This document shows, in pieces, positions 19,379 through 35,811 of a stretch of DNA of 64,000 bases. The position numbers and the translations under genes are program-made. The stretch is from Escherichia phage AV123, in sequence record OR352953.1. One strand, given 5' to 3'. The notes under the pieces are model-generated. The model was not told where the DNA came from. It did no database searches and worked only from the letters and a program-made list of their open reading frames with translations. Position 1 is the stretch's first letter. Every line of letters begins with the position of its first letter.

Positions 19379-19384
19379 CACATA

Positions 19385-19408
19385 AACCCGCTTCGGCGGG
19401 TTTTCTTG
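19385..19408 (+). terminator. rho-independent terminator (CCCGC-TTCG-GCGGG + TTTT)
   Basis: tetraloop hairpin and T-tract after stop 19378. Confidence 0.65.
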
Positions 19409-20107: not shown

Positions 20108-20125
20108 AATATTCTCCTATAAGAA

Positions 20126-20143
20126 AAGGGGCTTTCGCCCCTT
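20126..20143 (-). terminator. intergenic GC hairpin AAGGGGCTTTCGCCCCTT (terminator-like, TTCG tetraloop)
   Basis: same 18-mer recurs at 31411 and 44498. Confidence 0.5.
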
Positions 20144-20150
20144 GGTCAAG

Positions 20151-20963
20151 TTACTTAGTCAAATGATCTTCTATCATTTTTATGAAAGCAGGATTGCTAA
20201 AAGCATCTGCTGCCTTTTCTCTATAAACAAAGACTCCTCTATCTTCGTAAAGAAGAGTTTCTTCGTAATTAATTCCTGGGTTAACAACAATCATTTTTGT
20301 ACCCATAGTAAGTGCAGGGAATAATTCCCAATTAAAATTGATAACTTGGTTTGAACATCCTACTACAACAACCAAATCTTGCATGGTCAAAGTATCAAAC
20401 AAGTGAGCCATATCTGCATACAAAGGTGCAGCCTCACCAAAAAATACAACATTAGGCTTCACCCAGTTATAATCATCTATGTTTATACTATTGTAACCAA
20501 TGTCTACCAGTGTTTTGTAATCTCCAGGATGCATACGGTAAACTACTTCAGGGAGATACCCGTGCACGTGAATAACAGAATCCCTGTCCACACCTGCTCG
20601 CTCTAGTAGATCATCGACGTTTGTTGTCAAGTTTACTACTTGGTTAGGATATTCCTTAAACCACTTTGCTATTTGAATATGTGCAGCATTAGGTTGTACA
20701 TCTTTAAGCTCAACACGTCTTTTGTTATAAAATTCGTGTGTTTTGGCATATAAGTCCATACCGTTCTCGTCTACACCACCGACCACTGGAAGATCTGGAG
20801 ATGTTCTCACACGATAACCTGCTTGGAAAGCTCCAATATCGCAGACCTCTTCTAAGTCATATTCTTCCCATAAGGCACGACCACTATCTGTGTCTGTTCG
20901 GAACGTTCGAATCCCACTGTCTGCACTTAAACCTGCGCCACTAACAAAAATTACTCTTCGCAT
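20151..20963 (-). CDS. Sir2-family (sirtuin-like) NAD+-dependent protein (270 aa)
   Basis: GAGLSADSGIRTFR (cf. sirtuin GAGIS..SGIPDFR), TTNVDDL (cf. TQNIDGL), HVHG catalytic His, VVFFGE, VVVGCS; no CxxC zinc module seen. Confidence 0.7.
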   Translation of the reverse strand: MRRVIFVSGAGLSADSGIRTFRTDTDSGRALWEEYDLEEVCDIGAFQAGYRVRTSPDLPVVGGVDENGMDLYAKTHEFYNKRRVELKDVQPNAAHIQIAKWFKEYPNQVVNLTTNVDDLLERAGVDRDSVIHVHGYLPEVVYRMHPGDYKTLVDIGYNSINIDDYNWVKPNVVFFGEAAPLYADMAHLFDTLTMQDLVVVVGCSNQVINFNWELFPALTMGTKMIVVNPGINYEETLLYEDRGVFVYREKAADAFSNPAFIKMIEDHLTK

Positions 20964-20974
20964 TCAATATCCTC

Positions 20975-21520
20975 TTAGTAATCATCATCCCAAGAAGATG
21001 CGTCGTAACGCTCTTCCTCTTCGAAATCCCAATTAATTTCTACTCCAAAATCTAAAAACAATTTAACAATGTTTTCTGTAGAGTAGTATTTATCATAAGC
21101 ATTAGCTAGTTCCCAATACTTGTCACTCAATTTTTTATATTTAGGATCATTATAGTCATAATCTACTTTATAACCATAATCATACATCTCTTGTTCAGCT
21201 TTAAGCATAGCTTCTGGTGTAAGAAGATTAGGGAACGGACGATTTCTTTCTTTTAACTTAGAAGCAATCCAGTTTGCAACATTCGCCACTTCACCATCTC
21301 GATTATCACCTAAACAACTTGCATAATCTCCATCTTCGTAAGTGCCTAAATCCCCACTAACTTCATGTACAATAGACGAATACGATCCACACGTTTCACA
21401 ATCTGAAAAAGTGTCTACTGTTGTAATATCAATAGATAAAACTGGTAAAGCCATAGCTTCTTTCACACAAGCCTCCTCATATAATAACATGTCATCAAAA
21501 CCCATATATCCTCCAGACAA
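20975..21520 (-). CDS. hypothetical acidic protein (181 aa)
   Basis: track ORF; D/E/Y-rich. Confidence 0.5.
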   Translation of the reverse strand: MSGGYMGFDDMLLYEEACVKEAMALPVLSIDITTVDTFSDCETCGSYSSIVHEVSGDLGTYEDGDYASCLGDNRDGEVANVANWIASKLKERNRPFPNLLTPEAMLKAEQEMYDYGYKVDYDYNDPKYKKLSDKYWELANAYDKYYSTENIVKLFLDFGVEINWDFEEEERYDASSWDDDY

Positions 21521-21559
21521 ATAAAGCCCCTGCTTGGGGCTTTGGTTAAGTTTTACGGA

Positions 21560-22171
21560 TTATACCAGACTTTTAAGGTACTTGTCAAGGGCTTCTTGAT
21601 CACCTTGACAAACATAGCAACGGAAGTCTTGAGCAGAAGGTTCTTTGTCCTCGTCCCAATCCCAATAGACAGTACCTTTATAGCGTGAGCCTGGGAACTC
21701 GAAGTATGCCACATGAGTAATATGGTGTGGGCCACCCCAAAATTCTGTAAAAGTAAATTGAGGATACGCTGCTTTAACTGTATTCTCAAACCAAGTTTTA
21801 CGATCTAATGCTTCGTTTATAAAATAAGCATGGCGTTCCATTTCATCCCAATCTTTCCAAACGCATTTTTCATCCAGAGAAAAAACAAAATCTTCACTGT
21901 TAAAATCGTCTGTATCTGATTCCAAAATATCATAATCATGTGCACTAGGTATCCACCATCCAGCTTCTAATAGTGCTTTTGCAGGTACAAAACCTTTTTC
22001 AGCATATTGATCAAATTCTTTTACTCTACGTACAGTGCAGTATTCATCTTCACCACCAATGTCCAGTAGACAAGCACCTTTGCGTCTTGCTGCAAGACCA
22101 TGTGTATCAAAAACTACAACACTACCTTCACCGTCTTCACGATCTACTTGATATGCAACTTTTTGAGTCAT
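21560..22171 (-). CDS. hypothetical protein (203 aa)
   Basis: track ORF. Confidence 0.55.
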   Translation of the reverse strand: MTQKVAYQVDREDGEGSVVVFDTHGLAARRKGACLLDIGGEDEYCTVRRVKEFDQYAEKGFVPAKALLEAGWWIPSAHDYDILESDTDDFNSEDFVFSLDEKCVWKDWDEMERHAYFINEALDRKTWFENTVKAAYPQFTFTEFWGGPHHITHVAYFEFPGSRYKGTVYWDWDEDKEPSAQDFRCYVCQGDQEALDKYLKSLV

Positions 22172-22294
22172 ATTACCCCCAATGTATATGGGAAATTAAC
22201 CAAAAGATAAATTCCCAAAAACACCAACCAAGAAAAGTTAATGGAATTATAAAGGCTATCAGAGCAGTCTTCCAGCCTTTCCACAATGTTTCCA

Positions 22295-23284
22295 CTATTC
22301 CTCCATACATTTAAGAATATGTGCAATGACAGGTATAGTCCAACCGTTACCTAACATCTTATATGCTTGTGTGTTACTACTCACTTTAAAGTAGTCATCT
22401 GGCACACCTTGCAAACGGCAACACTCTTTAACGGTTAACTTTCTATAATGTACGCCTTCACTCAATTTTTCAAAAGCATCTAAATATCTTCCAGGTGGAA
22501 TGTAAGCTAATAGTACGTCTTTCGGCACAGTCGTGAGGCAACGAGTTTTTTCACTGTCCTGAACTTCCAAACAATGTACCAAACGATCAGTTTTAGATGT
22601 ACTACGTTTGCCATTTTCATTAATTCTACGCCCATATATTGCTGCTGGATAAAAAACCAGTTGTCTGCGACTCTTTTCAAAATACTGTTCTATATTGCCA
22701 CCTTTGGCATAATTTGCATCTATGCAATAAGCCTTATCTCTGTCTACAATACTATCATCTTCAATGATATCTTGCAATACTTCATTGGTAATCTCCCAGG
22801 GTTTTATTTCCCAGTTGCACCAGTATAAACGTTGTCTATTCTGTGCCGTGAAATCTGCGGAGTTAATGAATACGGGATCAACACCTAAGTAACTTGTGAT
22901 CACGTTTTCCCACTCCACTTTCATCTTAACGTTTTCAAGCATGAACTTAACATTAGGGTTAAACTTTTTAATATGTTCAAGAATTTCAACATATTCGAAG
23001 AATAGCTTAGATCGCGGATCTTGAAAGTTCAAACCCTTACCAGAAGAAGAGAAGCCTTGACACGGACTACCACCTAACAAAAGATCAATTTCTCCCCACG
23101 GGATATCCCATTCTCTCCATTTTGTAACATCACCTAACTGAATAATATCTGGAAAATTTGCTTGGCTTTCAGCTATGGCAAATTTGTCTAATTCTGAAGC
23201 ATAATATGTATCTACTTCAATACCTGCACTTTTTAGCGCAAGCATTCCTCCTGACATACCATCAAAAAGACTTAAAACTTTCAT
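22295..23284 (-). CDS. DNA (cytosine-5)-methyltransferase (329 aa)
   Basis: FDGMSGG (AdoMet motif I), GGSPCQGFS (PCQ catalytic motif IV), ENV motif. Confidence 0.8.
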   Translation of the reverse strand: MKVLSLFDGMSGGMLALKSAGIEVDTYYASELDKFAIAESQANFPDIIQLGDVTKWREWDIPWGEIDLLLGGSPCQGFSSSGKGLNFQDPRSKLFFEYVEILEHIKKFNPNVKFMLENVKMKVEWENVITSYLGVDPVFINSADFTAQNRQRLYWCNWEIKPWEITNEVLQDIIEDDSIVDRDKAYCIDANYAKGGNIEQYFEKSRRQLVFYPAAIYGRRINENGKRSTSKTDRLVHCLEVQDSEKTRCLTTVPKDVLLAYIPPGRYLDAFEKLSEGVHYRKLTVKECCRLQGVPDDYFKVSSNTQAYKMLGNGWTIPVIAHILKCMEE

Positions 23285-23286
23285 TA

Positions 23287-23697
23287 TTACTTCTTCTCCT
23301 TAACACTAGCTGGTAATTCTGCCTTGAGGCAGAAGTTTAAACGGTAAGCCTCATTCTCATTTAAAAGTACAGATTCACACGATAACCAGAACAAGAGATC
23401 CTCAATACTAGGACTGTTAAGCCAACAGTGCAGAAGAGAATGTTGTTCTATATCAATGTAATTTAGTAACAAGGCTTGTAAGGCGTAACTAGTTCCTGTC
23501 GTTTTTGCTTTTTCAAGGATGATATTGTGTTTATTAACAACTTTCTTCCTAAGACCAAACCATTTATTAACAACAACAGTCTCTTCTTGTAGTTGTTTTC
23601 TTATTTTCTCACATTCTTTAACTACAATCTGCATCTTATCCACTGCTGATTGAAGTTGTTCTTTTGTTGGGTTTACAAAATAATCACTATAATACAT
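23287..23697 (-). CDS. hypothetical protein (136 aa)
   Basis: track ORF. Confidence 0.5.
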   Translation of the reverse strand: MYYSDYFVNPTKEQLQSAVDKMQIVVKECEKIRKQLQEETVVVNKWFGLRKKVVNKHNIILEKAKTTGTSYALQALLLNYIDIEQHSLLHCWLNSPSIEDLLFWLSCESVLLNENEAYRLNFCLKAELPASVKEKK

Positions 23698-23745
23698 GCT
23701 AATCTCCTCTTCTGTTTTTCTGTAGTTTATTCGAAAAAACTGGTG

Positions 23746-23768
23746 TTGTCAACAAAAAACCCGCCGAA
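23746..23768 (-). terminator. terminator hairpin (AACCCGC-TTCG-GCGGGTT + T-run on minus strand)
   Basis: GC tetraloop hairpin between 23780 gene and 23697 gene. Confidence 0.55.
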
Positions 23769-23779
23769 GCGGGTTTATA

Positions 23780-24037
23780 TTATTCTACAGGAACTTCTTC
23801 ACCAAAAGAAACTTCTAAACGGAATGCTTTACTTTCAATACACTCACTACCTTTTAGAAAATCAAATTGCACTATAGACTGACTTAATAGGATAGATAGA
23901 ATCACATCGCAATCTTCACTAGGAGCTAGATGTTTGTATTCTTCCTTCAAGGTAACATCATAAAAACATAAATCCCCTACTCCTAGTTCATCCCATCCTT
24001 CCCACGCATCTACAAAGTTAAACTCTAAACCTTTCAT
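23780..24037 (-). CDS. hypothetical protein (85 aa)
   Basis: track ORF. Confidence 0.5.
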   Translation of the reverse strand: MKGLEFNFVDAWEGWDELGVGDLCFYDVTLKEEYKHLAPSEDCDVILSILLSQSIVQFDFLKGSECIESKAFRLEVSFGEEVPVE

Positions 24038-24558
24038 ACAACCTCCTCGTAGTTGTTATTGTGTTTTACTGTCTCAACATACAATAAAGATTCCATCTGT
24101 AATACATTACCAGAAATAATAAACCCATAAGCCATTTCAGATGTGTCTATATCATATGCCCCGTCTTCCGGTTTAGCAAAGTGTAAAACTATTTCATCCG
24201 GGTTTTCTTCATCCCATAGTTTAGAAATTTTCCGAACCAGAATGTTAGCTAAAATAGTTGACATTCGGGATAAAGCTGTATCCTCATATCTTTTAAAACC
24301 TAGCCAATAGAGGTTAAGAATTTCTACTTCTTCTTGTGTTAAGTTTTTGTCTAAAGTAATCAGATCTGTAGAGCACGGCGTTTTTGTTGAACCTACTGTT
24401 ACAAAACCTGGAGTGTTATGAAAAACAATCTTAACTTTATCACGTATAAAGTTTAAACCTTGTGCCTCAACTATATATTGTATTGTAGGTACAATATCGT
24501 TTGTTACATCAATAAAACTATCTTTAATGACGCTTATATTATTTCTGGACAAGACCAT
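24034..24558 (-). CDS. hypothetical protein (174 aa)
   Basis: track ORF. Confidence 0.55.
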   Translation of the reverse strand: MVLSRNNISVIKDSFIDVTNDIVPTIQYIVEAQGLNFIRDKVKIVFHNTPGFVTVGSTKTPCSTDLITLDKNLTQEEVEILNLYWLGFKRYEDTALSRMSTILANILVRKISKLWDEENPDEIVLHFAKPEDGAYDIDTSEMAYGFIISGNVLQMESLLYVETVKHNNNYEEVV

Positions 24559-25117
24559 TCTCCTCTAAAATAGGCTTAATAAACTCGAAAATTTGTTTTT
24601 TACTTTTACCTCTAATATTAAAACAAGGAACATTAAACTTTTTAGCCAACATCCAAGCTGTTCTTGTACCACCTAAAGGATCTCCATTTTTATCTGTATT
24701 TGCACAAGCTAAAAGAAAACAAGATGGTTTTGGATTCTCAAGATCTCTGCCAAGAACTTGGTGGATATTCCTTTGATGTAATTTTTTAGCACCTTGAGAT
24801 AATCTGTCCCAAGCCGGATGCAATTCTTTTGCATATTGTAAGGTTAAAGCATAGTTTACACTATCTGGTCTGTCAAGAACAATAACCTCTCCCTCTATTT
24901 CATTACCTTTAAACGAGAGCCAAGGGATGTATATTTCTTTCTTTGTATTGTTCCCACTATCATATACCCCGCATTCAAATGCGGAATCTGCACCTTCTGC
25001 TTTACCAGATCGCAAAATGAACCATGTAGATAACCATTTTGCAACAGATACCATAGTATCCCATTCTTCGTCTGTAATATCTCTGCTACCAACACCTGTG
25101 TAGAATAAATCGCTCAT
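24539..25117 (-). CDS. SLOG-superfamily (DprA/LOG-like) Rossmann-fold protein, tentative (192 aa)
   Basis: internal ATG with AAGGAG RBS; YTGVGSR ... SGKAEGADSAFE ... GDPLGGTRTAWM resemble DprA/LOG glycine-rich motifs; assignment by eye only. Confidence 0.35.
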   Translation of the reverse strand: MSDLFYTGVGSRDITDEEWDTMVSVAKWLSTWFILRSGKAEGADSAFECGVYDSGNNTKKEIYIPWLSFKGNEIEGEVIVLDRPDSVNYALTLQYAKELHPAWDRLSQGAKKLHQRNIHQVLGRDLENPKPSCFLLACANTDKNGDPLGGTRTAWMLAKKFNVPCFNIRGKSKKQIFEFIKPILEENGLVQK

Positions 25118-25127
25118 GGTTTTCTCC

Positions 25128-25448
25128 TTAACAAGTAATATTGGGAGTAACAATTGGATTAACAATTGGAGTAATAGGGTACGTAAACCAAGGGCTTCCA
25201 ATTTCCCAAGGATTATAAGGTCTACGAGGATCAAATGGGGGAGTTACTTCAGGCTTTTTCCAAATCTCCGCTAGTTGTTTCTTCCATTTATCCCTTGCTG
25301 TCTCATTATCTTCATCCAACTGTTCATCATTATCTTTTATTTCTGGTTTTGGAAATAAAAGCTCTTTGACTAACTCAACATCTTCCGTCTCAATAGTAGT
25401 TTCTTTCGTAAGTTCTCCTACTGTTTCTTTAATTGTGATTTTATACAT
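25128..25448 (-). CDS. hypothetical protein (106 aa)
   Basis: track ORF. Confidence 0.5.
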   Translation of the reverse strand: MYKITIKETVGELTKETTIETEDVELVKELLFPKPEIKDNDEQLDEDNETARDKWKKQLAEIWKKPEVTPPFDPRRPYNPWEIGSPWFTYPITPIVNPIVTPNITC

Positions 25449-26194
25449 TAGTCCTCCTCTAAAGTAGAATAAAATTGTAACGTATTTGAATCATCAAAAT
25501 ATGCAAAGGTTAAATTACCATTGAAGCAAGATCCTGTGTCCATATATACCCTATTACTGCTAATCACAGGTTTAGGAACATAAGAATGCCCGTGAAATAC
25601 ATAATCTACTCCTGAAACCCTAGGAAGAAGAATTCCTTCAAGTGCGCAATCTATCATATCACGATCCCACATTAAAGATTCTGTGAATCGAGAAACTTGC
25701 TCTTTATTCATATTCAAACAAAATGGCAAAACTTCTGTCACTGGTAAATGTTCCAAAACTGAAGGATACCCACCGTGAATAAAGCCTAGTTTCATATTAC
25801 GATAATTGACAACAAGTACAACAGGTAAATCTTCTAGCATCAAAGCAAGAGCAGTTGCACCCTCTTCTCCACACTCGTCTAGAACTGTATGGCCTCCGTT
25901 CTGAAACCAACATTCGTAATATCGTCTATCACCTTCTAGCAACCCTTTAATCATCATATCTTCATGATTTCCACGAATACCATAACGATTTAGCTTTCTG
26001 GTGAATTCAACAACACAACGAAAATTCTGCTTGCCGCGATCTGTAAGATCTCCTAAAGATACAACAACATCTTGATCTCGGATACCTAAAGTATTAACAC
26101 CTTTCTGGTACAAATCAAAGCAACCATGTAAATCACCAATAATAAACAGGTCTTGATCATCTTTTACACTAATTTCTTGATATACTAGCATCAA
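25448..26194 (-). CDS. PPP-family Ser/Thr protein phosphatase (lambda-phosphatase-like metallophosphoesterase)
   Basis: GDLHGCFD, GDLTDRG, GNHED signature motifs. Confidence 0.75.
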   Translation of the reverse strand: MMLVYQEISVKDDQDLFIIGDLHGCFDLYQKGVNTLGIRDQDVVVSLGDLTDRGKQNFRCVVEFTRKLNRYGIRGNHEDMMIKGLLEGDRRYYECWFQNGGHTVLDECGEEGATALALMLEDLPVVLVVNYRNMKLGFIHGGYPSVLEHLPVTEVLPFCLNMNKEQVSRFTESLMWDRDMIDCALEGILLPRVSGVDYVFHGHSYVPKPVISSNRVYMDTGSCFNGNLTFAYFDDSNTLQFYSTLEED

Positions 26195-26517
26195 CTCTCC
26201 TCAAAATCCATAAGTATAAAGATATTAACTTTACCTTCTATATTATGTTCTACAACAAGATCTGCAAATTCTTTGTAGGCTTTTTCTTCTATTTGTTCAA
26301 TGTGAGACGCTACATCTTTGTATATAGCGTCACCATCTACTTTAACAAGGAGGAATAGAGATCTTACTTCAATCTCTTTATTTTTGCGGGGTAGAAAATC
26401 GACGGCTTCTTGTATACGCCAGCCGAGATACCCTGGAGTCCTTTGAATATCCTCCAAATGACTTTCTAAGATTTCCCTTCCTTTGTCTATTAAAGCCTGT
26501 TCTGTCGTTATTTTCAT
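26191..26517 (-). CDS. hypothetical protein (108 aa)
   Basis: track ORF. Confidence 0.5.
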   Translation of the reverse strand: MKITTEQALIDKGREILESHLEDIQRTPGYLGWRIQEAVDFLPRKNKEIEVRSLFLLVKVDGDAIYKDVASHIEQIEEKAYKEFADLVVEHNIEGKVNIFILMDFEES

Positions 26518-26527
26518 CCCCTTCTCC

Positions 26528-27100
26528 TTAATGTGTTAATGAAACTGCGTAGCTAAACACAGGTTCAGATATTACATCGGCTACAGTAATAAAAACGTCT
26601 TCGTCTTGAGTTGTTTCTACACGACATACAGTTACACCATTCACCACAAATTCAACGCAATGTGGAATATCTTCACAAACGAAGGTAGTGTAAGTAACAC
26701 CCAAAGCATCATACAAAGATTTAACAGTGTTTGCAAGTGCCGCAGTTTCTTCTTTTTCTGAGACAATGAATGCTGTAACAATAAGATTGTTTGCATAGTT
26801 TAAACTGTCCTCTATAGCCAATGATTTACAAGGTAGTAATGCAAAATATTTACCTGGTTTAATCAGACCTGCTTCCCATTGATTCAAAATTGCCTGGGAT
26901 GGTTTAGTAATATAAAACAGATTTTCACTTGGGTTATCAATATTACTTCTGGCGATACAACGTGAAGGATTATTAATATCAAATACATGATCAAAATCTA
27001 CACAAACAGGTAAACTGAAAGGTGTGAATTTTTTACCTAATAATCCTATGGCTGATAATATGTTTGCTGTGCTTATCTTCCCGTTAAAAGCTAAACGCAT
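26528..27100 (-). CDS. hypothetical protein (190 aa)
   Basis: track ORF. Confidence 0.55.
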   Translation of the reverse strand: MRLAFNGKISTANILSAIGLLGKKFTPFSLPVCVDFDHVFDINNPSRCIARSNIDNPSENLFYITKPSQAILNQWEAGLIKPGKYFALLPCKSLAIEDSLNYANNLIVTAFIVSEKEETAALANTVKSLYDALGVTYTTFVCEDIPHCVEFVVNGVTVCRVETTQDEDVFITVADVISEPVFSYAVSLTH

Positions 27101-27111
27101 ACTTAACTCCT

Positions 27112-27315
27112 TTAACTAGCAACCGTAACTTCCGAACTTTCTTCTTTCGTACTGTCTACGATATGCCTGGTGGCAATATACGAGACTTGCCAGTTACCAT
27201 CTGGTGTAGTCTCAATAAGTACCCTATCTACTTCGAGAAAATGCAAAAATTCAACCATCGCTCGCTTCGATAGGAATTGTTTTTTAACAGTCTCCTCAAA
27301 AGATTGAACTGCCAT
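27112..27315 (-). CDS. hypothetical protein (67 aa)
   Basis: track ORF. Confidence 0.45.
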   Translation of the reverse strand: MAVQSFEETVKKQFLSKRAMVEFLHFLEVDRVLIETTPDGNWQVSYIATRHIVDSTKEESSEVTVAS

Positions 27316-27324
27316 GTTTCCTCC

Positions 27325-27987
27325 TTATTTAATATTCAATTTTGCACAAAGACGTTGTACCGCTTTGGCATCGAACAAACTCCCACGAATAGTTCTCTTT
27401 CCTGATTCATTCAGATGCTTTGCAATCGTCATATATGGCGTTTTACAAGCTCTGTATGCAACTAAAGAATCTTTTAAAGAAAGCGCAAACTCTCTTGAGC
27501 GTTTTGCTTCTTCCGTTTTCGTATAATCTGTTCTTTTGTATTTAGGGTTTGCTGCACCAAGAAGCGTTCCCTTCGCTTTTGCTACCTTAAGGCTCTTCTT
27601 AACACGATCAGATATTGCACGAGCCTCTTCTTCTGCCAGAACTGCTAAAATATTTATTATCATATTTTCAGCGGAGGGCATAGTTGCTATTCGTACATTA
27701 ATCATCTCTAATAAGGTTGCAACAGAGGCTGTGTTACGTCCAAGACGGTCAACCTTAGCAACAACAAGTGTAGCACCTGTTTCTTTGCAAAGATTAACAG
27801 CTTTTACAAGCTCTCTACGTTGCTTCCAATCGCCTTTACCCGAATAAAACTCTGCAAAGCTACCTACAATAGTATAATTTTCTTGTGAATCCAGGAAGCG
27901 TTGAATATCTGCTTCCTGTGATTCTATACCATACTGGTTGCCTTGTTGTTTCTTCTTAGAAAGTCGATGATATAGTACAAACTTCAT
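27325..27987 (-). CDS. small serine recombinase (resolvase/invertase family, 220 aa)
   Basis: N-terminal YHRLSK with catalytic Ser, VAKVDRLGRN motif, C-terminal HTH-like segment. Confidence 0.75.
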   Translation of the reverse strand: MKFVLYHRLSKKKQQGNQYGIESQEADIQRFLDSQENYTIVGSFAEFYSGKGDWKQRRELVKAVNLCKETGATLVVAKVDRLGRNTASVATLLEMINVRIATMPSAENMIINILAVLAEEEARAISDRVKKSLKVAKAKGTLLGAANPKYKRTDYTKTEEAKRSREFALSLKDSLVAYRACKTPYMTIAKHLNESGKRTIRGSLFDAKAVQRLCAKLNIK

Positions 27988-28044
27988 AATACCCTCCTGT
28001 TCTGTTACAGGAAGTATGCACTACCTTAATGTTAAAGTCAACAG

Positions 28045-28248
28045 TTAAGTAGTGGTAATATCATCCTCTTGAATACTAGGGTCAACTTCTGCAAAGATAG
28101 CCTCTACAGGAATTTCTTCACCTGCTATTCTAGAAAGAAGCACTGAACCAATAGCTTTTGCGTGTTCTTCGGATTCCGCATAAACATTAGTTCCTGTGTC
28201 TTTTTTCTTAGTTTCGTTAAAATATACCAGATAGTAATTGTATGCCAT
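28045..28248 (-). CDS. hypothetical protein (67 aa)
   Basis: track ORF. Confidence 0.45.
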   Translation of the reverse strand: MAYNYYLVYFNETKKKDTGTNVYAESEEHAKAIGSVLLSRIAGEEIPVEAIFAEVDPSIQEDDITTT

Positions 28249-28499
28249 TATTCATCCCAATCGCCGTTACGAGCACTTTCAAGAACCTTGACAACTTCTG
28301 CATACTCTACAGCTAAACCAGCACATACTTCAGCTTGTTTTGCAATTGCTTGTTTAAAGAACATAGCGATTGCAACACTCTGTGTTGTGTGAATGTTATC
28401 TGCTTTAGTTGATACATGAAGATCAAAATCTTCTTCATCAAAGGTGAGTTCCATAGTAACAATAAATTTCTCGGTCATAAAAATGCTCCTCTTAAACAA
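28248..28499 (-). CDS. hypothetical protein (83 aa)
   Basis: track ORF. Confidence 0.45.
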   Translation of the reverse strand: MFKRSIFMTEKFIVTMELTFDEEDFDLHVSTKADNIHTTQSVAIAMFFKQAIAKQAEVCAGLAVEYAEVVKVLESARNGDWDE

Positions 28500-29001
28500 A
28501 ATAGAAAGGTTGAGTTAAACCCAGCCTGTTTTTTGGGTCGTAGACGTACCAAGCATATGCTGTCTTATCAGTACCACCTGCAACAAAAGATGGTCGTTCA
28601 GAAAGAACAATTAAATTTGTTGGTGGATTCTGTTTATGGAATTCCCTTCGTTTAATAGACTCTAGGAACCCAAGACGCAACAAGTATATGCAAACGTCTG
28701 CTTCTTTTAAGCTCTTTTGCAAGAACTCAAGTGCAAGTTTGAATGGGGGATTTGTGATTATAATATCCGGCTTAGTATGCCATTCGTGGTTAAAATAATC
28801 TTTCCCTTCTTCTAACTCACAATATTCTGATCCTTCTGGAAAATGTTGATAAATTGCAGCAGCAGCGCCTTTACACGGTTCTGCAAAAATAAAACCTTCT
28901 TCTTTAAGGTTATTAAAATCTATTACACTAAATAATGCATTTATACATTTTTGTGGAGTAGGATAGTAATCAGTTGGTGGACGATCATACTTATTTGCCA
29001 C
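28492..29001 (-). CDS. phage N6-adenine (or N4-cytosine) DNA methyltransferase (169 aa)
   Basis: DYYPTP N-terminal motif and NPPF catalytic motif IV. Confidence 0.7.
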   Translation of the reverse strand: MANKYDRPPTDYYPTPQKCINALFSVIDFNNLKEEGFIFAEPCKGAAAAIYQHFPEGSEYCELEEGKDYFNHEWHTKPDIIITNPPFKLALEFLQKSLKEADVCIYLLRLGFLESIKRREFHKQNPPTNLIVLSERPSFVAGGTDKTAYAWYVYDPKNRLGLTQPFYFV

Positions 29002-29419
29002 TACTTAAAATCTCCTCTTTTGTGATTTCAGGGTCTTCTTCAAAAACCATAATATCTCTTAAGAACGTTAATTCTTCCATAGATACTGGTATTGTATCTT
29101 CTTCTGTTTTTCGTTTACATAAATCGTCAAGAAAGTTTTTAAAGTTTTCTGACAAATCGTAAAATTTTAACAGTTGATAATCACAGGAGGAGATCCTATC
29201 TAGTTCTAACATTCTTTCTAAGATATTTTCTGTGTTGCCGTACAACACACGAACTTCTCCGAAAGGGTTAACTGAATATTGTGAAGTTCTGAACCATCCC
29301 TTTTTAGATACAGTGTAACGCTGTTCTGCTAAACTTTCAATAAAATTTTTAGCTCTTTTACAGTTTTGTTCTAAAGAGTAGTAGGCTTTTTCTACAAAGG
29401 TTACAGGTACTGGTAACAT
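28991..29419 (-). CDS. hypothetical protein (142 aa)
   Basis: track ORF. Confidence 0.5.
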   Translation of the reverse strand: MLPVPVTFVEKAYYSLEQNCKRAKNFIESLAEQRYTVSKKGWFRTSQYSVNPFGEVRVLYGNTENILERMLELDRISSCDYQLLKFYDLSENFKNFLDDLCKRKTEEDTIPVSMEELTFLRDIMVFEEDPEITKEEILSSGK

Positions 29420-29459
29420 ATCTCCTCCTAATAACCCCCTTGCGGGGGTTTATACTAGA

Positions 29460-30113
29460 TTAATTATCAGAGGACACTTTATCAAGTTTTTCAGAGACTG
29501 TCAATACTTTTTCTTGTGATTCTTTCATTTCTGCTAAAATACTTTCAGCTTCATCACTATCAGGATCACCAGTCAACAGCATACTAATTAGTTGCTCCTT
29601 GCTGAAGTTCAGAATATCTTCCGCTGTTAACTCCAGTTGTTCTTCGATCTCTTCGATAAAAGTTTCACCGCCTGAAAAAGCATCTCGCAGTTTTGCAACT
29701 TCCATCGCTTCTTCTGGGGTTGCCCCAGCGTCTAAAGCTGCTAAAGCAAAATCTGCCCCACTACCAACAGCATAATAATCTTCAGTTAAAGGATATGCTC
29801 GCGTTGGATTGTTACCCTCGTGCATATAAATTTTACCGTCTGGGTGAACAACTAATGCCACAAACTCTTCATCTTCTTTATCAGGATCTGACTGGATCAC
29901 CAAACCTGGGATTGTCTCTTGTGCTGCTTGGCATTGTAAGTTTTGTTCGAACCAAGAAAAGAAAGTCAGGATAGAAGACAGACGTCCTGCACCACCAACA
30001 AGGTAATCCCCAATTTTACGCACTTTCTTGAAATTTAAAGTGTCTACACGACTACCTACTGTTACTTTACCATCAGATAGAATTTTGTTATGTGTTGCAA
30101 TAATTGTTGTCAT
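29460..30113 (-). CDS. HslV-like Ntn-hydrolase peptidase with acidic C-terminal extension (217 aa)
   Basis: MTTIIA N-terminus (Thr nucleophile after Met), NFKKVRKI, VGGAG, AVGSGADFALAA align with E. coli HslV motifs; AGGAGG RBS. Confidence 0.65.
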   Translation of the reverse strand: MTTIIATHNKILSDGKVTVGSRVDTLNFKKVRKIGDYLVGGAGRLSSILTFFSWFEQNLQCQAAQETIPGLVIQSDPDKEDEEFVALVVHPDGKIYMHEGNNPTRAYPLTEDYYAVGSGADFALAALDAGATPEEAMEVAKLRDAFSGGETFIEEIEEQLELTAEDILNFSKEQLISMLLTGDPDSDEAESILAEMKESQEKVLTVSEKLDKVSSDN

Positions 30114-30604
30114 TGTACTTCCTCCTGTAGTGTTTTAAGGACTGCTTTACCACCGCTTACATATTTACGGAGGTAATCAATAGCTCTTAGTGTTTCTTTA
30201 TCCACAAGAATTTTATTAGTTCTTGTCAATGGATGATTCAGTAAGTCACTGCAATTTCTTACTAACATAGATTTCTTGTGAAAGATACTGCTAAGAAAAA
30301 GAAGTTTAGAATCTTCTTCATCAATCAGGAGTAATTCTGAATTAGACCCAGCTACATTTATTATACACTCAAACAAGCCTTCTTGACTATCAGATAATTC
30401 CTGGTAATATTTAGTTAGCCAATCCTCTCCTTTTAACCAACTAAAAAACATCTGAACTTTTTGCAAAGTTGTCATGTTCTCTAAACGAAGAGATATTTCT
30501 TTTTCAATCTTGTCAATATAAATCTGTCTAAACTCATTCGGCTTAACTAAGCCAGCTTGATAGCATTCATCAATACCATTGCGATCAATCTCAATTAGCG
30601 TCAT
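30110..30604 (-). CDS. hypothetical protein (164 aa)
   Basis: track ORF. Confidence 0.55.
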   Translation of the reverse strand: MTLIEIDRNGIDECYQAGLVKPNEFRQIYIDKIEKEISLRLENMTTLQKVQMFFSWLKGEDWLTKYYQELSDSQEGLFECIINVAGSNSELLLIDEEDSKLLFLSSIFHKKSMLVRNCSDLLNHPLTRTNKILVDKETLRAIDYLRKYVSGGKAVLKTLQEEVQ

Positions 30605-30640
30605 TTAACCTCCATAATAGGCATCCTTGCCTTGTAATTA

Positions 30641-31393
30641 TTAATATACTTCCGTGATGAACTGAGACAAACGGGAACGTTGGTTATCAGCAGTTGTCAT
30701 TTCAACATAACCAATAAAATCTACAATAGCTTCCCTTTCTCCTTCTTCGTTAATAGGAACAACACGATCTAACAAATCACCTAACCCGTTAGCTCTTCGT
30801 TTAATTGCATATGTTTGATTAACATCGCCCATAATGACAATACGTGTATTAAGACCTGCTCGCTCAAGGAGAAGTTTTACTGTGTTTGGTGACATAAGTT
30901 GAACTTCATCAATAAGAATAATGCTGTTATCCCACGTAGCACCTAGTGCATAGTTCGGAATATTAAGTTCAATTTTGCCACTTGCAATATCGTTTTCCAA
31001 TTTATTTGCAGTCATAAACTGTTGGAAAATTCTTTTAGTTGACTCGTAGTGTGCTGCTAGTTTATCAGTCTTATCTCCAGATAAGAAACCGATTTGGTCA
31101 TCACCTACTTCTGTCGGGTTTTTAAGGAAAATCAACTTTCTGAAGTCACCAGCTTTAAGCATTTGCAATGCTTTCCATAGTGCTGTTGTCGTTTTTCCTG
31201 TTCCTGCTGGGGCATTAACAATGGTTAAATCATTCCAAACCATGCTTCTTACAATAGCTTCTTGATTCCCAACAGGGGTAAATTCATCAAGACGGTAATC
31301 ATCATTTCCTACTGCTTTAGCCGCATAACGACTGGCACGTTTGTCATCATTGGCTGTTGATTGACGACGAGCCTTTGCGGTTTTATTTCCCAT
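30641..31393 (-). CDS. phoH: PhoH-like P-loop ATPase
   Basis: APAGTGKTT Walker A and PhoH-like overall layout. Confidence 0.8.
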   Translation of the reverse strand: MGNKTAKARRQSTANDDKRASRYAAKAVGNDDYRLDEFTPVGNQEAIVRSMVWNDLTIVNAPAGTGKTTTALWKALQMLKAGDFRKLIFLKNPTEVGDDQIGFLSGDKTDKLAAHYESTKRIFQQFMTANKLENDIASGKIELNIPNYALGATWDNSIILIDEVQLMSPNTVKLLLERAGLNTRIVIMGDVNQTYAIKRRANGLGDLLDRVVPINEEGEREAIVDFIGYVEMTTADNQRSRLSQFITEVY

Positions 31394-31410
31394 GTTTGCA
31401 CTCCTTATAA

Positions 31411-31429
31411 AAGGGGCTTTCGCCCCTTT
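31411..31429 (-). terminator. intergenic GC hairpin AAGGGGCTTTCGCCCCTT (terminator-like)
   Basis: identical to hairpin at 20126 and 44498; T-runs on both sides. Confidence 0.5.
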
Positions 31430-31431
31430 GT

Positions 31432-31932
31432 TTAGTTATAAGCGTCTAATGTTCCAGTTTTAAGCACCTGAATTACACGCTCTGCGCGATTAGGCGTTTG
31501 GCGATACCATTTACTTTTACGTAAATTTATAGAGGCTTGAGTATAATATGAATTACTCACTAAAGTCAAGCTATTTTTGAAAGATTCTGCACCTTTCAAT
31601 CCCATTTGAAATACCATATTAATAATAGCCATTTTACGATTAGGACTTACTTTATCGTAAATAGGAGATAATATGGTGCTTGAATGGATTTGTTGTATCG
31701 CTTTCTTTACGTCACTCTCAAAGATTCTTCTAGCTTCCGCTTCAGTAATAACTCCATTGGTTTTTCTACCTACTAAGTTATCAAGAATGCGTATAGCTTC
31801 TGCTTTATCTTTGAGTTTTGTCAGAAGGTGTCCAATACCAACTGTCCAATACCCTTCGGTATCAGGATATACAGTTAGCTTTAGTCCTTCATCAAAACGT
31901 AACATATCAAACACATCAACTACTTTAGCCAT
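31432..31932 (-). CDS. e: T4-type lysozyme (endolysin, glycoside hydrolase family 24)
   Basis: MLRFDEGLKLTVYPDTEGYWTVGIGHLL, INMVFQMG and SKWYRQTPNRA closely match T4 lysozyme. Confidence 0.9.
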   Translation of the reverse strand: MAKVVDVFDMLRFDEGLKLTVYPDTEGYWTVGIGHLLTKLKDKAEAIRILDNLVGRKTNGVITEAEARRIFESDVKKAIQQIHSSTILSPIYDKVSPNRKMAIINMVFQMGLKGAESFKNSLTLVSNSYYTQASINLRKSKWYRQTPNRAERVIQVLKTGTLDAYN

Positions 31933-31944
31933 GTTTTCCTTATA

Positions 31945-32088
31945 TTAGTCGCCCTCCCCATGATCTAGCTCTTGAAACAGTAGGTGTTCAGGAGACATTT
32001 CACGTTTAGGCTTCGTCTTTTTAGTTTGGGACTTAAGCTCTGTTGCCAAAGCACGAGAAAAGATCTTACGTTTCTGTTTACCTTTCAT
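31945..32088 (-). CDS. hypothetical small basic protein (47 aa)
   Basis: ATG with GGAG RBS on minus strand; not in track (<60 aa). Confidence 0.4.
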   Translation of the reverse strand: MKGKQKRKIFSRALATELKSQTKKTKPKREMSPEHLLFQELDHGEGD

Positions 32089-32092
32089 ATTG

Positions 32093-32359
32093 TTACTCCG
32101 CAATCTGAGCCATGAATTCACGTAGTTCAGAAAAACCTCCTACGTGGGTTAGCTGTTCACCATCTTCCACAAAAATCTGAGGAAATGTGCGTGGTAGAAC
32201 ACCTGTTTTCTCTACAACCAGATTCTGAATCTGATCTAAAGAATAGTCTTCATCTAAGGTAAGATATTTAAAATCCTGTTCACGCTGTTCTAGTAGAATC
32301 TTAGCGTTAGTGCAGAAAGGACAATTTGGTTTACCGTAGATAATAAAATTCATTTTCAC
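32093..32359 (-). CDS. glutaredoxin-like protein (NrdC/NrdH-type redoxin)
   Basis: CPFC active-site motif near N-terminus; 88 aa; adjacent to nucleotide-metabolism genes. Confidence 0.7.
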   Translation of the reverse strand: MKMNFIIYGKPNCPFCTNAKILLEQREQDFKYLTLDEDYSLDQIQNLVVEKTGVLPRTFPQIFVEDGEQLTHVGGFSELREFMAQIAE

Positions 32360-33186
32360 TCCTTGTTTAAAAGTATAGTTAAAGTTCTTACAATACCGCT
32401 ATCAACACTTCGCGGATTTAAAGTAGGATCTGTTTTTAAATAAGATGTTGCTGGTCTGACTGCTTTGGAATTATAGGTTGAAGCAGATACAGGATTAACT
32501 GTAACAGACAAATCTACAACAAGAAATATCTTTCGTGCAAAATCATACCAAGAAATATAATCTGCACCTGCATAGTGTACAATTTTACTATTTACACCAT
32601 CTTTTACAAGTTTAAAAATTGTTTCTGCAAGATCAGGTGCATAAGTAGGACATGATAAATGATCACATACTACATTAAATTCTTTTTGACCACCGTTGTA
32701 GCGTTCCAACATAGTTTTCAAAAAGTTATGTCCAAATTCACTATAAACAGAAGCTGTTCTGATAATAAGTGCTGTAGGACAAACTGTTTGTACTAAAGTT
32801 TCACCTAATTGTTTACTGTAACCGTAGGTGTTCAAGGGGTTTGTTTTACTATCTTCTGTGCCAGCAACATGCCCATCAAAAACATAGTCTGTTGAAATAT
32901 GTACAAACTGTATCAGTAAATCATTACATGCTTTGGCAATGTTTGTTGCACCGTATGCATTAACATTTATACAGGTGTTAACATCTTCTTCAGCTTTATC
33001 TACTGCCGTGTAAGCCGCACAATTCACAACAACATCAGGCACATGCTGTACAAGACTATTCATAACATCTTTAAAGTTGGTAATGTCTACATCACTTGCT
33101 TCAATCAAAATAACATCTTCGGGCGCAACTTTTGCCAAAGACTGTCCTAATTGACCTTTTGAACCAAAGATTAAAAATTTTGTCAA
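32356..33186 (-). CDS. rmlD: dTDP-4-dehydrorhamnose reductase
   Basis: N-terminal FGSKGQLG Rossmann motif; operon context with rmlC/A/B. Confidence 0.75.
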   Translation of the reverse strand: MTKFLIFGSKGQLGQSLAKVAPEDVILIEASDVDITNFKDVMNSLVQHVPDVVVNCAAYTAVDKAEEDVNTCINVNAYGATNIAKACNDLLIQFVHISTDYVFDGHVAGTEDSKTNPLNTYGYSKQLGETLVQTVCPTALIIRTASVYSEFGHNFLKTMLERYNGGQKEFNVVCDHLSCPTYAPDLAETIFKLVKDGVNSKIVHYAGADYISWYDFARKIFLVVDLSVTVNPVSASTYNSKAVRPATSYLKTDPTLNPRSVDSGIVRTLTILLNKE

Positions 33187-33737
33187 AATATGATCTCCTT
33201 TAGTGTTTTGGCTTGCTGATCTTTTTGTGACAAGATAGGTTTAAAATTAATATCATTAAAGATTAAATCAAAACCCCAATCAATATTGATATCTGGATCA
33301 TTCCACGCAAGACTACACTCTGAAGTCGGATCGTAATACTCTGTACATTTATATTCAAAATCAGCAATGTCACTAATCACAACAAAGCCATGAGCGAAAC
33401 CAGGAGGAATCCAAAATTGTGTTTTATTCTTTTCAGATAAGAGAACACCTACCCATTCTCCAAATGTTGGACTACCAACCCTAATATCTACAGCAACATC
33501 ATAAACTTCACCACGAACACAACGTACTAACTTCCCTTGTGGGTTTTTCTTTTGAAAATGAAGCCCACGTAGAACTCCTCGAATAGAACGTGAATGGTTG
33601 TCTTGGACAAAGTTTTGTTTACCTATGTATTGATCATATAAAGCCTGATTAAAACTTTCTAAGAAAAAACCACGTTCATCTCCGTAAACGTCAGGTTGAA
33701 TGATCAACAAATCTTCGATTTTTGTTGCTTGAATCAT
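33183..33737 (-). CDS. rmlC: dTDP-4-dehydrorhamnose 3,5-epimerase
   Basis: 184-aa cupin-size protein between rmlD and rmlA; RGLHFQ-like motif. Confidence 0.7.
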   Translation of the reverse strand: MIQATKIEDLLIIQPDVYGDERGFFLESFNQALYDQYIGKQNFVQDNHSRSIRGVLRGLHFQKKNPQGKLVRCVRGEVYDVAVDIRVGSPTFGEWVGVLLSEKNKTQFWIPPGFAHGFVVISDIADFEYKCTEYYDPTSECSLAWNDPDINIDWGFDLIFNDINFKPILSQKDQQAKTLKEIIF

Positions 33738-33749
33738 TTAATTCCCCCT

Positions 33750-34619: not shown

Positions 34620-34627
34620 ACTCCTCC

Positions 34628-35617: not shown

Positions 35618-35811
35618 TTAGTCTCCTTCCAATTATTCCCTTCAGTAAAAATAATACCTTCATAAAACAACCATCTGGAACCTTTTTCAACAGGAACAGG
35701 AAGCTCTTCTTCAGTAAAGTTATAAACCTCTCTAGCATCTTCTAAAAGTGATGCAAATGTTTTTGGACTTACTGTTACGCGAGGAGCATTGATCAGTTGA
35801 TCTAGCATCAT
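35614..35811 (-). CDS. hypothetical protein (65 aa)
   Basis: internal ATG of track ORF with AAGGAGG RBS. Confidence 0.45.
   Translation of the reverse strand: MMLDQLINAPRVTVSPKTFASLLEDAREVYNFTEEELPVPVEKGSRWLFYEGIIFTEGNNWKETK

Follow-up and report, generated by a model that had tools for sequence, protein, structure and literature searches.

The gene run between phoH and a Sir2-like gene in Escherichia phage AV123: probably conserved backbone of phi92-like phages rather than an accessory island

Escherichia phage AV123 (sequence record OR352953.1) carries, in a 64,000-nucleotide stretch that is called the window here, a run of genes between those for a PhoH-like ATPase and a Sir2-like protein. 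The run encodes DNA methyltransferases, a small serine recombinase, a phosphatase, an HslV-like peptidase, a DprA-like protein and many small proteins, and all of its genes lie on the minus strand. An earlier reading of the letters, termed below the sequence-only reading, saw in positions 23287-30604 an accessory island devoted to anti-restriction and host manipulation. The analysis presented here leads to a different picture. With a probability of about 0.8, the interval represents the distal end of a long leftward arm of replication, nucleotide-metabolism and host-takeover genes in a phi92-like virulent myovirus, vertically inherited within the Stephanstirmvirinae and not acquired as an island. 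The gene identifications made earlier are correct; the island interpretation that was built on them is not supported.

What kind of phage is this? A megablast search with window positions 21000-33000 as the query against 50,697 phage records returned 54 records with at least 80% query coverage. The top match is vB-Eco-KMB37, with 99.1% identity; phi92 and EmilieFrey follow at 98.9%, inny is also among the top matches, and all of these align unbroken over the full 12 kb. These alignments place the source phage among the phi92-like myoviruses, in the genus Justusliebigvirus of the subfamily Stephanstirmvirinae, which is related to rV5 and is not T4-like. Because the closest relatives are members of Justusliebigvirus at 98.9-99.1% identity, the description of the genes as atypical for core T4-like genomes started from a wrong baseline; in phages of the phi92/rV5 type such genes are normal. 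The same genes are found in phi92 as gp043-gp060 (NC_023693, 14463-23561) and likewise in the BASEL phage EmilieFrey (Bas61). The RefSeq record of phi92 and the BASEL annotation of EmilieFrey name gp038 as Sir2, gp043 as DNA methyltransferase or ‘Dcm-like C5 cytosine methyltransferase’, gp047 as DprA-like, gp049 as NinI-like phosphatase, gp051 as ‘histidyl tRNA synthetase’, gp053 as DNA invertase or site-specific recombinase, gp056 as DNA methyltransferase or ‘putative N6 adenine methyltransferase’, gp058 as HslV-family peptidase and gp060 as PhoH. All of the named genes were already known, having been publicly annotated since the phi92 genome record. A 2025 paper on Stephanstirmvirinae genera makes no mention of these genes.

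Gene order is conserved among relatives. Of the 55 close public genomes (at least 95% identical), 54 contain the whole interval 23287-30604 in blastn comparisons, with 97-99% identity, and some 80 further genomes, mostly of Phapecoctavirus, cover 53-67% of it at about 71% identity. To compare synteny at greater distance, 22 window proteins were aligned by tblastn with two Klebsiella phages, ZCKP1 of the genus Phapecoctavirus and FKP3, which is a divergent Justusliebigvirus. Collinear homologues were found in both phages for 16-17 of the 22. The order shared by the window, ZCKP1 and FKP3 is PhoH, gp059, the HslV-like peptidase, gp057, the small methyltransferase gp056, gp055, gp054, gp051, (gp050), the phosphatase gp049, gp048, the DprA-like gp047, gp046 and gp045, and protein identities to the two phages range from about 32% (gp046) to 86% (the small methyltransferase). 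In the window this block, from PhoH to gp045 and with the recombinase between gp054 and gp052, is collinear and on one strand. The genes for PhoH and the small methyltransferase (47% identical) adjoin even in a phage of rV5 type from a different subfamily, downstream of ribonucleotide reductase genes, and the phi92 record cites gp147, gp148 and gp152 of PVP-SE1 as homologues of PhoH, the DprA-like protein and the methyltransferase. The annotation of EmilieFrey puts the block at the end of an arm with DNA ligase, exonucleases, thymidylate synthase, ribonucleotide reductase, dTDP-rhamnose genes, glutaredoxin and endolysin.

Does the region have edges of its own? PhoH and Sir2 flank the run as had been claimed, both being identified by Pfam. 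A synteny comparison had been proposed to delimit the island; it yields no island edges, and in the sister lineages the block is continuous with PhoH. The G+C content of the region is 0.34-0.39, and the negative GC skew is uniform across the leftward gene arm at 20-55 kb, as is expected for a single long arm of this orientation, and is the same as in the flanks. A repeat search of the window and scans for tRNAs and Rfam elements gave no boundary repeat, tRNA, Rfam element or integration signature in the region. Presence/absence polymorphism, deviating composition and boundary features, the marks of an accessory island, are not seen for the interval; the recombinase gene alone behaves as an indel.

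The natural divisions appear instead to be those of transcription. At its downstream end the conserved block seems to stop at a strong intrinsic terminator, a hairpin predicted at 23757-23776 on the minus strand directly after gp045 (AAACCCGCTTCGGCGGGTTT, then T6), which overlaps the -35 element of the promoter-like site preceding gp044. The 23-nucleotide hairpin at 23756-23778 recurs identically at 19382-19404, where it closes the rightward early arm. A second terminator, together with a perfect consensus promoter, is predicted at 21523-21588, and a third terminator at 20126-20143, after Sir2. A second, lineage-variable unit consisting of gp044, the C5 methyltransferase, gp042 and gp041 would start at the promoter-like site, and a third unit would comprise gp039 and Sir2. 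At the other end, PhoH is the upstream neighbour of the studied run and the first gene past a hairpin that trails the endolysin gene. This hairpin, at 31410-31429 between the endolysin and PhoH genes, is likely to be read through because its tail consists of four T only. Identical terminator hairpins thus recur at several unit ends: besides the 23-nucleotide element, one of 20 nucleotides occurs three times, at 20124-20153, 31409-31438 and 44497-44526.

The interval 23287-30604 of the sequence-only reading thus spans both the conserved block (24034-30604) and gp044, which opens the separate, variable unit and is the sole gene of that unit within the interval. By comparison of the sequences, the variable parts are the recombinase gene and the transcription unit of the C5 methyltransferase, and the latter lies mostly beyond the interval. 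Two local events on a conserved backbone would account for the differences between lineages: a relocation or insertion of the recombinase gene, and a swap of the methyltransferase-containing unit downstream of the terminator.

How does the anti-restriction role fare? Phenotyping of the BASEL collection, which included three phi92-like isolates, revealed exceptional sensitivity to six restriction-modification systems, namely EcoKI, EcoCFT_I, EcoRI, EcoRV, EcoP1_I and EcoCFT_II, and this published sensitivity argues against broad anti-restriction (PMC8594841). Sensitivity to EcoRI and EcoRV would mean that the DNA is not generally adenine-methylated; the genome carries 31 GAATTC and 55 GATATC sites. 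Site statistics were calculated for the window and for a complete relative, OZ035773.1 (148,885 bp). Palindromic hexamers with no more than one copy number 21 of 64 in OZ035773.1 and 11 in the window, against 4-47 expected copies. Examples are AAGCTT (0 observed vs 46.6 expected), CTGCAG (1 vs 33), GGTACC (0 vs 22.5) and GGATCC (0 vs 18.7). GGCC and CATG are depleted as well; GATC, CCWGG and GCGC occur at the expected frequency. As a clue to the target of the C5 enzyme these statistics are suggestive at most. Because palindromic hexamers are so strongly depleted, the dominant counter-restriction strategy is avoidance of palindromic sites over the whole genome, and the main defence against type II enzymes is not encoded in the interval; the methyltransferases cover, at most, particular motifs. 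As a separate observation, the window holds a full dTDP-rhamnose pathway on the minus strand at 32356-35618 (glucose-1-phosphate thymidylyltransferase, 4,6-dehydratase, 3,5-epimerase and reductase). Such dTDP-rhamnose genes have been described as putative dTDP glycosylation machinery, with no protection from restriction (PMC8594841).

Could the interval still be a horizontally acquired accessory island whose genes act jointly in anti-restriction and host manipulation? It holds one of the two methyltransferases, for which Pfam and PADLOC detect no cognate endonuclease, it contains a recombinase and many small unknown genes, and a junction of convergent transcription, at about 19.4-19.8 kb, is close by. 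Convergent junctions of this kind often collect variable genes. However, the synteny is gene for gene over two genera and extends partly over subfamilies, so that an island is largely refuted: nearly all close genomes have the interval, and conservation as core in relatives, which the sequence-only reading had itself named as evidence against an island, is largely what is seen. The composition equals that of the flanks, neither boundary repeats nor a tRNA are present in the region, the recombinase is of the small resolvase type with no paired sites found around the block, and phi92-like phages are by experiment very sensitive to restriction (PMC8594841). We therefore regard an acquired island as very unlikely and prefer vertical inheritance of the arm, against which several points weigh. 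The case for vertical inheritance comes from synteny among three to four lineages and not from a phylogeny, and 10 of the 16 genes of the interval are without assignable function. The promoter and terminator calls are consensus matches only, and the four-T hairpin upstream of PhoH leaves the start of the first unit undefined. The BASEL panel comprises six systems, and the phages may be protected against other specificities; for the small methyltransferase, the fold comparison ranks the rRNA N6-methyladenosine (m6A) enzymes PH1948 and METTL5 level with DNA enzymes (equal Z). The features of the region are collected in Table 1.

Table 1. Genes and other features of the run between phoH and Sir2, with positions in the window
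Feature	Position	Strand	Evidence and remarks
PhoH-like ATPase gp060	30641-31393	-	PF02562, E 1.4e-35; 76-78% identical in ZCKP1 and FKP3
gp059, 164 residues	30110-30604	-	phrog_14834 only; 67-73% identical in sister lineages
HslV-like N-terminal-threonine peptidase gp058	29460-30113	-	Pfam Proteasome, E 1.7e-5; phrog_1040, E 9e-62
gp057, 142 residues	28991-29419	-	phrog_15078 only; 46-47% identical in sister lineages
Small stand-alone amino-methyltransferase gp056, 169 residues (predicted)	28492-29001	-	NPPF at 28741-28752; phrog 799, E 8e-57
Small proteins gp055 and gp054	28248-28478; 28045-28248	-	phrog_14731; phrog_15892; ZCKP1 and FKP3 have homologues in the same place
Single-gene insertion relative to Phapecoctavirus	27316-28044	-	gp053 and a 57-nucleotide upstream spacer with promoter-like TTGACT-17-CATACT
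Small serine recombinase gp053 (coding sequence)	27325-27987	-	PF00239, E 8.4e-22; codon of catalytic Ser10 at 27958-27960
gp052, 67 residues	27112-27315	-	52% identical in FKP3; resemblance to ZCKP1 gp028 at the DNA level only
gp051, 190 residues	26528-27100	-	phrog_4806, E 1.4e-59
gp050, 108 residues	26191-26517	-	phrog_15398; 74% identical in ZCKP1, no match in FKP3
Lambda-phosphatase/NinI-type PPP Ser/Thr phosphatase gp049	25448-26191	-	Metallophos PF00149, E 2.9e-13; phrog_246, E 1e-75
gp048, 106 residues	25128-25448	-	phrog_15301; 36-46% identical in sister lineages
Single-domain SLOG-superfamily protein gp047, DprA-like clade, 192 residues (predicted)	24539-25117	-	Alignment, AlphaFold2 model, Foldseek
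gp046 and gp045	24034-24558; 23780-24037	-	phrog_8569; phrog_4991; 31-44% identical in ZCKP1 and FKP3; the conserved block ends with these two genes
Unit boundary (predicted)	23724-23776	-	Terminator hairpin AAACCCGC-TTCG-GCGGGTTT with T6 run, 23757-23776; promoter-like TTGACA-17-TAAACT, 23752-23724
gp044, 136 residues	23287-23697	-	phrog_16551; only 24% identical to ZCKP1 gp015; first gene of the variable unit
C5-cytosine DNA methyltransferase gp043	22295-23284	-	PF00145, E 1.1e-43, residues 1-327 of 329; PCQ at 23057-23065
Rest of the run to Sir2	20151-22310	-	gp042; gp041, 21560-22171; gp039, 20975-21520; Sir2, 20151-20963

Of the two methyltransferases, the small one, gp056, lies in the conserved block and is, by tblastn, its best-conserved gene, with 86% identity between genera. 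It gives no match to Pfam, NCBIfam or PDB sequences. Its motifs are DYYPTP (X), FAEPCKG (I) and IITNPPF (IV), which is the order X, I, IV of gamma-class N6-adenine methyltransferases on a class-I S-adenosylmethionine fold, and in an alignment of 42 homologues DxYxTP, EPCxG, TNPPF and RPSF are invariant or nearly so. The AlphaFold2 model (mean predicted local distance difference test score, pLDDT, 90.9) has the class-I methyltransferase fold and is closest to M.TaqI, CamA, METTL5 and MmeI, with HsdM also among the best matches; Foldseek ranks M.TaqI and CamA first. The modelled protein consists of the catalytic core only, has no target-recognition domain and aligns with just the catalytic domains of the longer DNA enzymes (TMt 0.2-0.26). 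As modelled, gp056 would be a minimal N6-amino methyltransferase core without a recognition domain, and the earlier call of an N6-adenine/N4-cytosine methyltransferase with NPPF is borne out by motifs and predicted fold. The family is large: a profile search collected 13,941 cluster representatives with E up to 0.001 (7,046 with E up to 1e-10). With few exceptions these are stand-alone proteins of 130-260 residues, and no Pfam or NCBIfam model covers the family. The 150 best relatives are almost all stand-alone within the same size range, apart from a single 560-residue protein that has no informative extra domain. The sub-threshold Pfam matches that relatives give point without exception to DNA adenine methylases (phage Dam, EcoRI methylase, Eco57I), the best match of the profile among PDB sequences is the type I subunit HsdM, PADLOC gives a weak type II methyltransferase match, and one distant homologue is the closing gene of an early operon in a temperate phage, adjoining an RNase T-like exonuclease. 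Because of the motif order, these sub-threshold matches and the early-operon context, adenine in DNA is most likely the substrate. In two homologues, P0056 and P0094, an inserted Cys-rich, zinc-ribbon-like segment of about 35 residues separates the RPSF motif from the GTD motif; its position is that where a DNA-contacting loop would be expected.

The second enzyme, gp043, is by its sequence features a complete type-II-like 5-methylcytosine DNA methyltransferase. It matches TIGR00675 (E 6e-41, 141 bits vs a cut-off of 100.65) and the PADLOC type II methyltransferase model (E 7.5e-46), and its translation contains GGSPCQ (with the catalytic Pro-Cys of motif IV), LENV (with the ENV of motif VI), QNRQR and GNGW. 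The sequence-only reading was right that a C5 methyltransferase with a PCQ motif is present, but the gene sits 3 bp outside the interval 23287-30604, as do three further genes between it and Sir2 (gp038; PF02146, E 1.3e-22). The best PDB sequence matches are DNMT3A/B (E 1.2e-23), slightly ahead of M.HaeIII and M.HhaI (1e-22); a motif-I stretch of the type VLSLFDG...G...VD.Y.ASE is shared with the catalytic domains of mammalian DNMT3A/3B. Can the target be read from solved enzymes? Only the catalytic motifs align with DNMT3, HaeIII and HhaI, and no specificity is readable. Orthology with E. coli Dcm (CCWGG), as the public label ‘Dcm-like’ has it, was also rejected, since PRK10458 scores 29.9 bits vs a cut-off of 710, over residues 280-328 only. 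Most likely, gp043 would methylate replicating phage DNA at one short motif and shield it only from cognate restriction enzymes.

The unit around gp043 differs between lineages. The C5 enzyme is absent from the syntenic stretches of ZCKP1 and FKP3 that were examined; in these phages gp045 is followed by several additional small genes, by a gene for a DUF7277/DUF7275 protein and by one of about 227 codons that is recorded as a DNA methyltransferase and has no Pfam match. In ZCKP1 this last gene lies between the homologues of gp044 and gp041, the slot of the C5 gene in the phi92-like coliphages. Is one of the neighbours a cognate nuclease? For gp041 this is unlikely, because its homologue adjoins a different gene in the ZCKP1 slot. 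Pfam and PADLOC reveal no restriction endonuclease among gp044, gp041, gp039, gp057 and gp059, a weak negative given that endonucleases are highly divergent. The description of the methyltransferases as orphans fits in so far as Pfam and PADLOC detect no partner, with the same weakness of negative evidence.

The recombinase gene, gp053, is the sole indel within the conserved block. ZCKP1 passes directly from the gp054 homologue to a gp052-like gene, and the alignments locate the difference at the gene plus its 57-nucleotide upstream spacer; the promoter-like site in the spacer is also conserved in FKP3. The resolvase/invertase-type small serine recombinase of the sequence-only reading is confirmed by the PF00239 match and the catalytic residues: in 28 family sequences D80, R81 and R84 (DRLGR) do not vary, and Y6, R8 and S10 hardly do. 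The Sin, Tn3 and gamma-delta resolvases are matched at E 1e-5 to 4e-4. In its C-terminal region gp053 is like the ‘recombinase domain’ of large serine integrases, with an IAxxLNxxGxxTxxG motif and, in one homologue, PF07508; the best NCBIfam and PHROG similarities include the large serine recombinases CcrB and XisF and an integrase. Where is the gene in Phapecoctavirus? In ESCO13 a 57%-identical orthologue lies about 13 kb away in the early arm of the opposite strand, and its neighbours are early genes with homologues at 10.5-17 kb in the window. The family comprises 85 clusters of 217-243 residues on contigs of up to about 135-157 kb, and the clade seems restricted to virulent phages with genomes of about that size. 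Its position differs between sister genera; a less likely reading makes it a single-gene element that mobilises itself, or an actor on replicating phage DNA. Self-comparison of the window and of the complete 148,885-bp relative revealed no res- or hix-like site pair, and no inverted or direct repeat pair beyond terminator and early-region hairpins, in a search that short degenerate sites would escape. Literature searches on the recombinase yielded nothing functional.

The tentative SLOG (DprA/LOG-like) call for gp047 is strengthened by its predicted fold and by matches to DprA, with no NCBIfam or PDB sequence match. GVGSR, LRSGxAxGAD, HxRNxxQ and GGTRTA are invariant in the alignment of homologues. 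The best structural matches of the AlphaFold2 model (pLDDT 96.4) are DprA of H. pylori and S. pneumoniae, with 5mll as the top Foldseek match (E 3e-6), followed by the molybdenum cofactor (Moco) carrier protein MCP, the SLOG domain of ThsA, ShosA, LOG and YpsA. PF02481 is matched by 30 of the 41 aligned relatives (best E 3.6e-6), gp047 itself being without a Pfam match, and the gp047 profile reaches PDB DprA sequences at E 0.1 only. With its 192 residues gp047 forms a single compact domain, vs 218-382 residues in the matched DprA chains, and the further DprA domains are missing. On the model and alignments, gp047 can be assigned to the SLOG superfamily as a DprA-like protein.

Two further enzymes of the block were correctly recognised. 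For gp058 the HslV-like assignment rests on Pfam, PHROG and phmmer matches and on retained catalytic positions; T. maritima HslV 1m4y is matched at E 8.9e-8 (phmmer). The protein starts MTTIIA, and Thr2, the Asp of SDGK, the Lys of KKVRK, GGAG and GSG are present and align with the HslV motifs (Asp17, Lys33 and the Gly-Ser-Gly positions). The NCBIfam HslV models give 33 and 31 bits vs cut-offs of 137 and 158, and there is an acidic C-terminal extension of about 60 residues; gp058 would accordingly be classed, by sequence, as a divergent relative and not an orthologue of HslV. No HslU-like gene is annotated in 50 kb of the EmilieFrey annotation and none was seen in the block, and literature searches on phage HslV returned nothing functional. 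The lambda-phosphatase-like Ser/Thr phosphatase gp049 has the domain match and all three PPP motifs, GDLHG, GDLTDRG and GNHE, at residues 19, 47 and 74; it resembles PrpA/PrpB at E 5e-27, under the NCBIfam cut-off. In FKP3 (4991-5727) the NinI-type phosphatase is annotated as two coding-sequence pieces, the window protein matches in two fragments, and the gene appears to be disrupted. Because their catalytic residues are kept, the HslV-type peptidase, the PPP phosphatase, the recombinase, the DprA-like SLOG protein and the two methyltransferases are probably active during infection.

What else might the three less familiar proteins do? A bare catalytic core of some 170-200 residues without a target-recognition domain is also what METTL5 has, and gp056 might methylate the N6 of adenine in rRNA or tRNA (METTL5/PH1948 or Erm/KsgA type), or another amino substrate, in host takeover instead of protecting DNA. 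The high identity between genera would suit a housekeeping role in infection better than an arms race, and the persisting EcoRI/EcoRV sensitivity implies that the DNA is not broadly adenine-methylated. Yet the top Foldseek matches, the best PDB profile match, the sub-threshold Pfam matches and the weak PADLOC match are all to DNA enzymes; distant homologues end early or replication operons of temperate phages, the usual place of orphan DNA methylases, and Dam-type small phage enzymes of comparable size form a family of their own, PF05869. An RNA or other non-protective substrate is accordingly judged improbable. It is equally improbable that gp056, not being an anti-restriction DNA methylase, is either an RNA m6A enzyme of the METTL5/PH1948 type or a regulatory or packaging DNA adenine methylase in takeover by rV5/phi92-type phages. 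DNA adenine remains the preferred substrate.

For gp053, the public name ‘DNA invertase’ is unsupported. A working invertase that flips a genome segment, for instance to switch tail fibres as Gin, Cin and Hin do, would agree with the catalytic residues kept across the family and with the match to PHROG 125 ‘DNA invertase’ (E 1.5e-31). Sites of the hix type are short and degenerate and may therefore have escaped the search. But the complete 148,885-bp relative has no inverted-repeat pair beyond GC-rich terminator hairpins, and both the similarities to large serine recombinases and the C-terminal motif are of another type. The several alternative fibre sets of phi92-type phages would suit a switch, but the fibres of phi92 are co-expressed, not switched (PMC8594841), and an invertase role is considered extremely unlikely. 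The case of gp047 is somewhat different. Among its structural neighbours are LOG nucleotide hydrolases, the antitoxin ShosA and the SLOG domain of ThsA with bound 3' cyclic ADP-ribose. It is without the accessory domains that bacterial DprA has, and the arm also encodes Sir2 and a phosphatase. Might it bind or degrade nucleotide signals against defence, e.g. by sequestering Thoeris-type cyclic ADP-ribose, and not serve as a recombination mediator on single-stranded DNA? DprA is best by both fold and profile (5mll, 4ljk, 3uqz), PF02481 is found in most of the relatives, and the gene stands within a DNA-metabolism arm with exonucleases and a recombination protein, all of which make signal binding rather unlikely and favour the DprA-like assignment.

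The other genes of the block say less. The hidden Markov model annotation of the unknowns that had been proposed was run and gave PHROG family matches, but assigned no function to ten proteins: these match PHROG families of unknown function only, and no nuclease, defence or anti-defence model in Pfam, NCBIfam, PHROG or PADLOC. The stop codon of gp059 overlaps the start of the HslV-like gene, and gp059 has no match in Pfam, NCBIfam or PADLOC. The public label of gp051, ‘histidyl-tRNA synthetase’ or ‘putative aminoacyl-tRNA synthetase’, could not be confirmed, there being no Pfam, NCBIfam or PDB sequence support. Both gp039 and gp051 are publicly ‘putative aminoacyl-tRNA synthetase’; the two have no mutual similarity, and neither has such support.

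Several observations concern the remainder of the window and its relatives. On the plus strand at 350-5600 a family of GGCGGGAAATGGTTTCCCGCC hairpins lies between small early genes, several of them with a conserved GTAAAGTnTAnCACATAGGGCGGG-like stretch ahead. Hairpins of the GGCGGGAAATGGTTTCCCGCC type also occur genome-wide in the self-comparison of the complete 148,885-bp relative, and the GGCGGGAAATGGTTTCCCGCC hairpins are probably regulatory repeats of the early region. Three paralogous small early genes, encoding about 108 residues each, are found on the plus strand at 8029-8361, 10187-10516 and 11164-11487; the ESCO13 proteins gp026, gp033 and gp037 each match all three, which indicates that the early arm of both genera carries this family in several copies. 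Further along the plus strand, 59145-62200 is occupied by an array of 15 tRNA genes (Met and Leu and Ser, two each; Lys, Tyr, Asn, Thr, Gly, Gln, Pro, Phe and Ile). Among the database records, MG065639, MG065645, MG065656 and others are labelled ‘Campylobacter phage’ with the host Campylobacter jejuni and are 97.9% identical to the phi92-like sequence over 12 kb, which points to mislabelling of the hosts or to contamination of that data set with coliphages.

As a discovery the region is of limited value, its genes being publicly annotated and the segment being ordinary backbone of a phage subfamily. The useful outcome lies in corrections, of the phage type and of coordinates that miss one of the two methyltransferases, and in the recognition of natural units: a conserved block, a variable methyltransferase unit and a mobile-looking recombinase gene. 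Residual questions are genuine yet modest. What is the substrate of the tiny methyltransferase, and what are the roles of the recombinase, the HslV-like and the DprA-like proteins? The large, unmodelled family of tiny NPPF methyltransferases may merit specialist attention, as phi92-like phages are used in therapy cocktails. For the same reason, specialists may wish to ask why strictly virulent phages have conserved a serine recombinase, an HslV-like peptidase and a DprA-like domain that stands alone.

How do these elements compare with known systems? The N-terminal catalytic domain of gp053, with R8, S10 and DRLGR, and its size of about 220 residues are those of the gamma-delta/Tn3 resolvases, Sin and Hin/Gin; it differs by an insertion after the catalytic Ser, by a DNA-binding C-terminal region like that of large integrases, and in that its clade is found on phage-sized contigs of about 135-157 kb; no res- or hix-like site pair was found in the window or in the complete relative. 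From the gamma-class enzymes M.TaqI, HsdM, MmeI and CamA, and from METTL5/PH1948, gp056 differs in having 169 residues only, no target-recognition domain and no match to a Pfam or NCBIfam model. HslV (ClpQ) and gp058 share the N-terminal Thr, the Asp, Lys and Gly-Ser-Gly positions and significant similarity to HslV structures, whereas gp058 falls far below the equivalog cut-off, has its acidic tail of about 60 residues and is without an HslU-like partner in the block. The Rossmann-like SLOG fold of gp047, its GSR and SGxAxGxD motifs and its best structural matches are those of DprA (Smf), whereas its single 192-residue domain lacks the further domains of bacterial DprA and is below Pfam detection. 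At the level of gene order, Phapecoctavirus (ZCKP1 gp013-gp035, ESCO13) has the same succession of PhoH, HslV-like peptidase, small methyltransferase, gp051-like protein, phosphatase and DprA-like protein to gp046 and gp045, at 32-86% identity; the recombinase is missing from the slot between gp054 and gp052, and in ZCKP1 four extra small genes, a DUF7277/DUF7275 protein and a 227-residue annotated methyltransferase, which replaces the C5 enzyme, lie downstream of gp045. Closest of all are phi92 and EmilieFrey (Bas61), with 98.9% nucleotide identity, identical gene order and product names that match the earlier identifications; they differ by point changes only, and the window represents a further isolate of the same genus.

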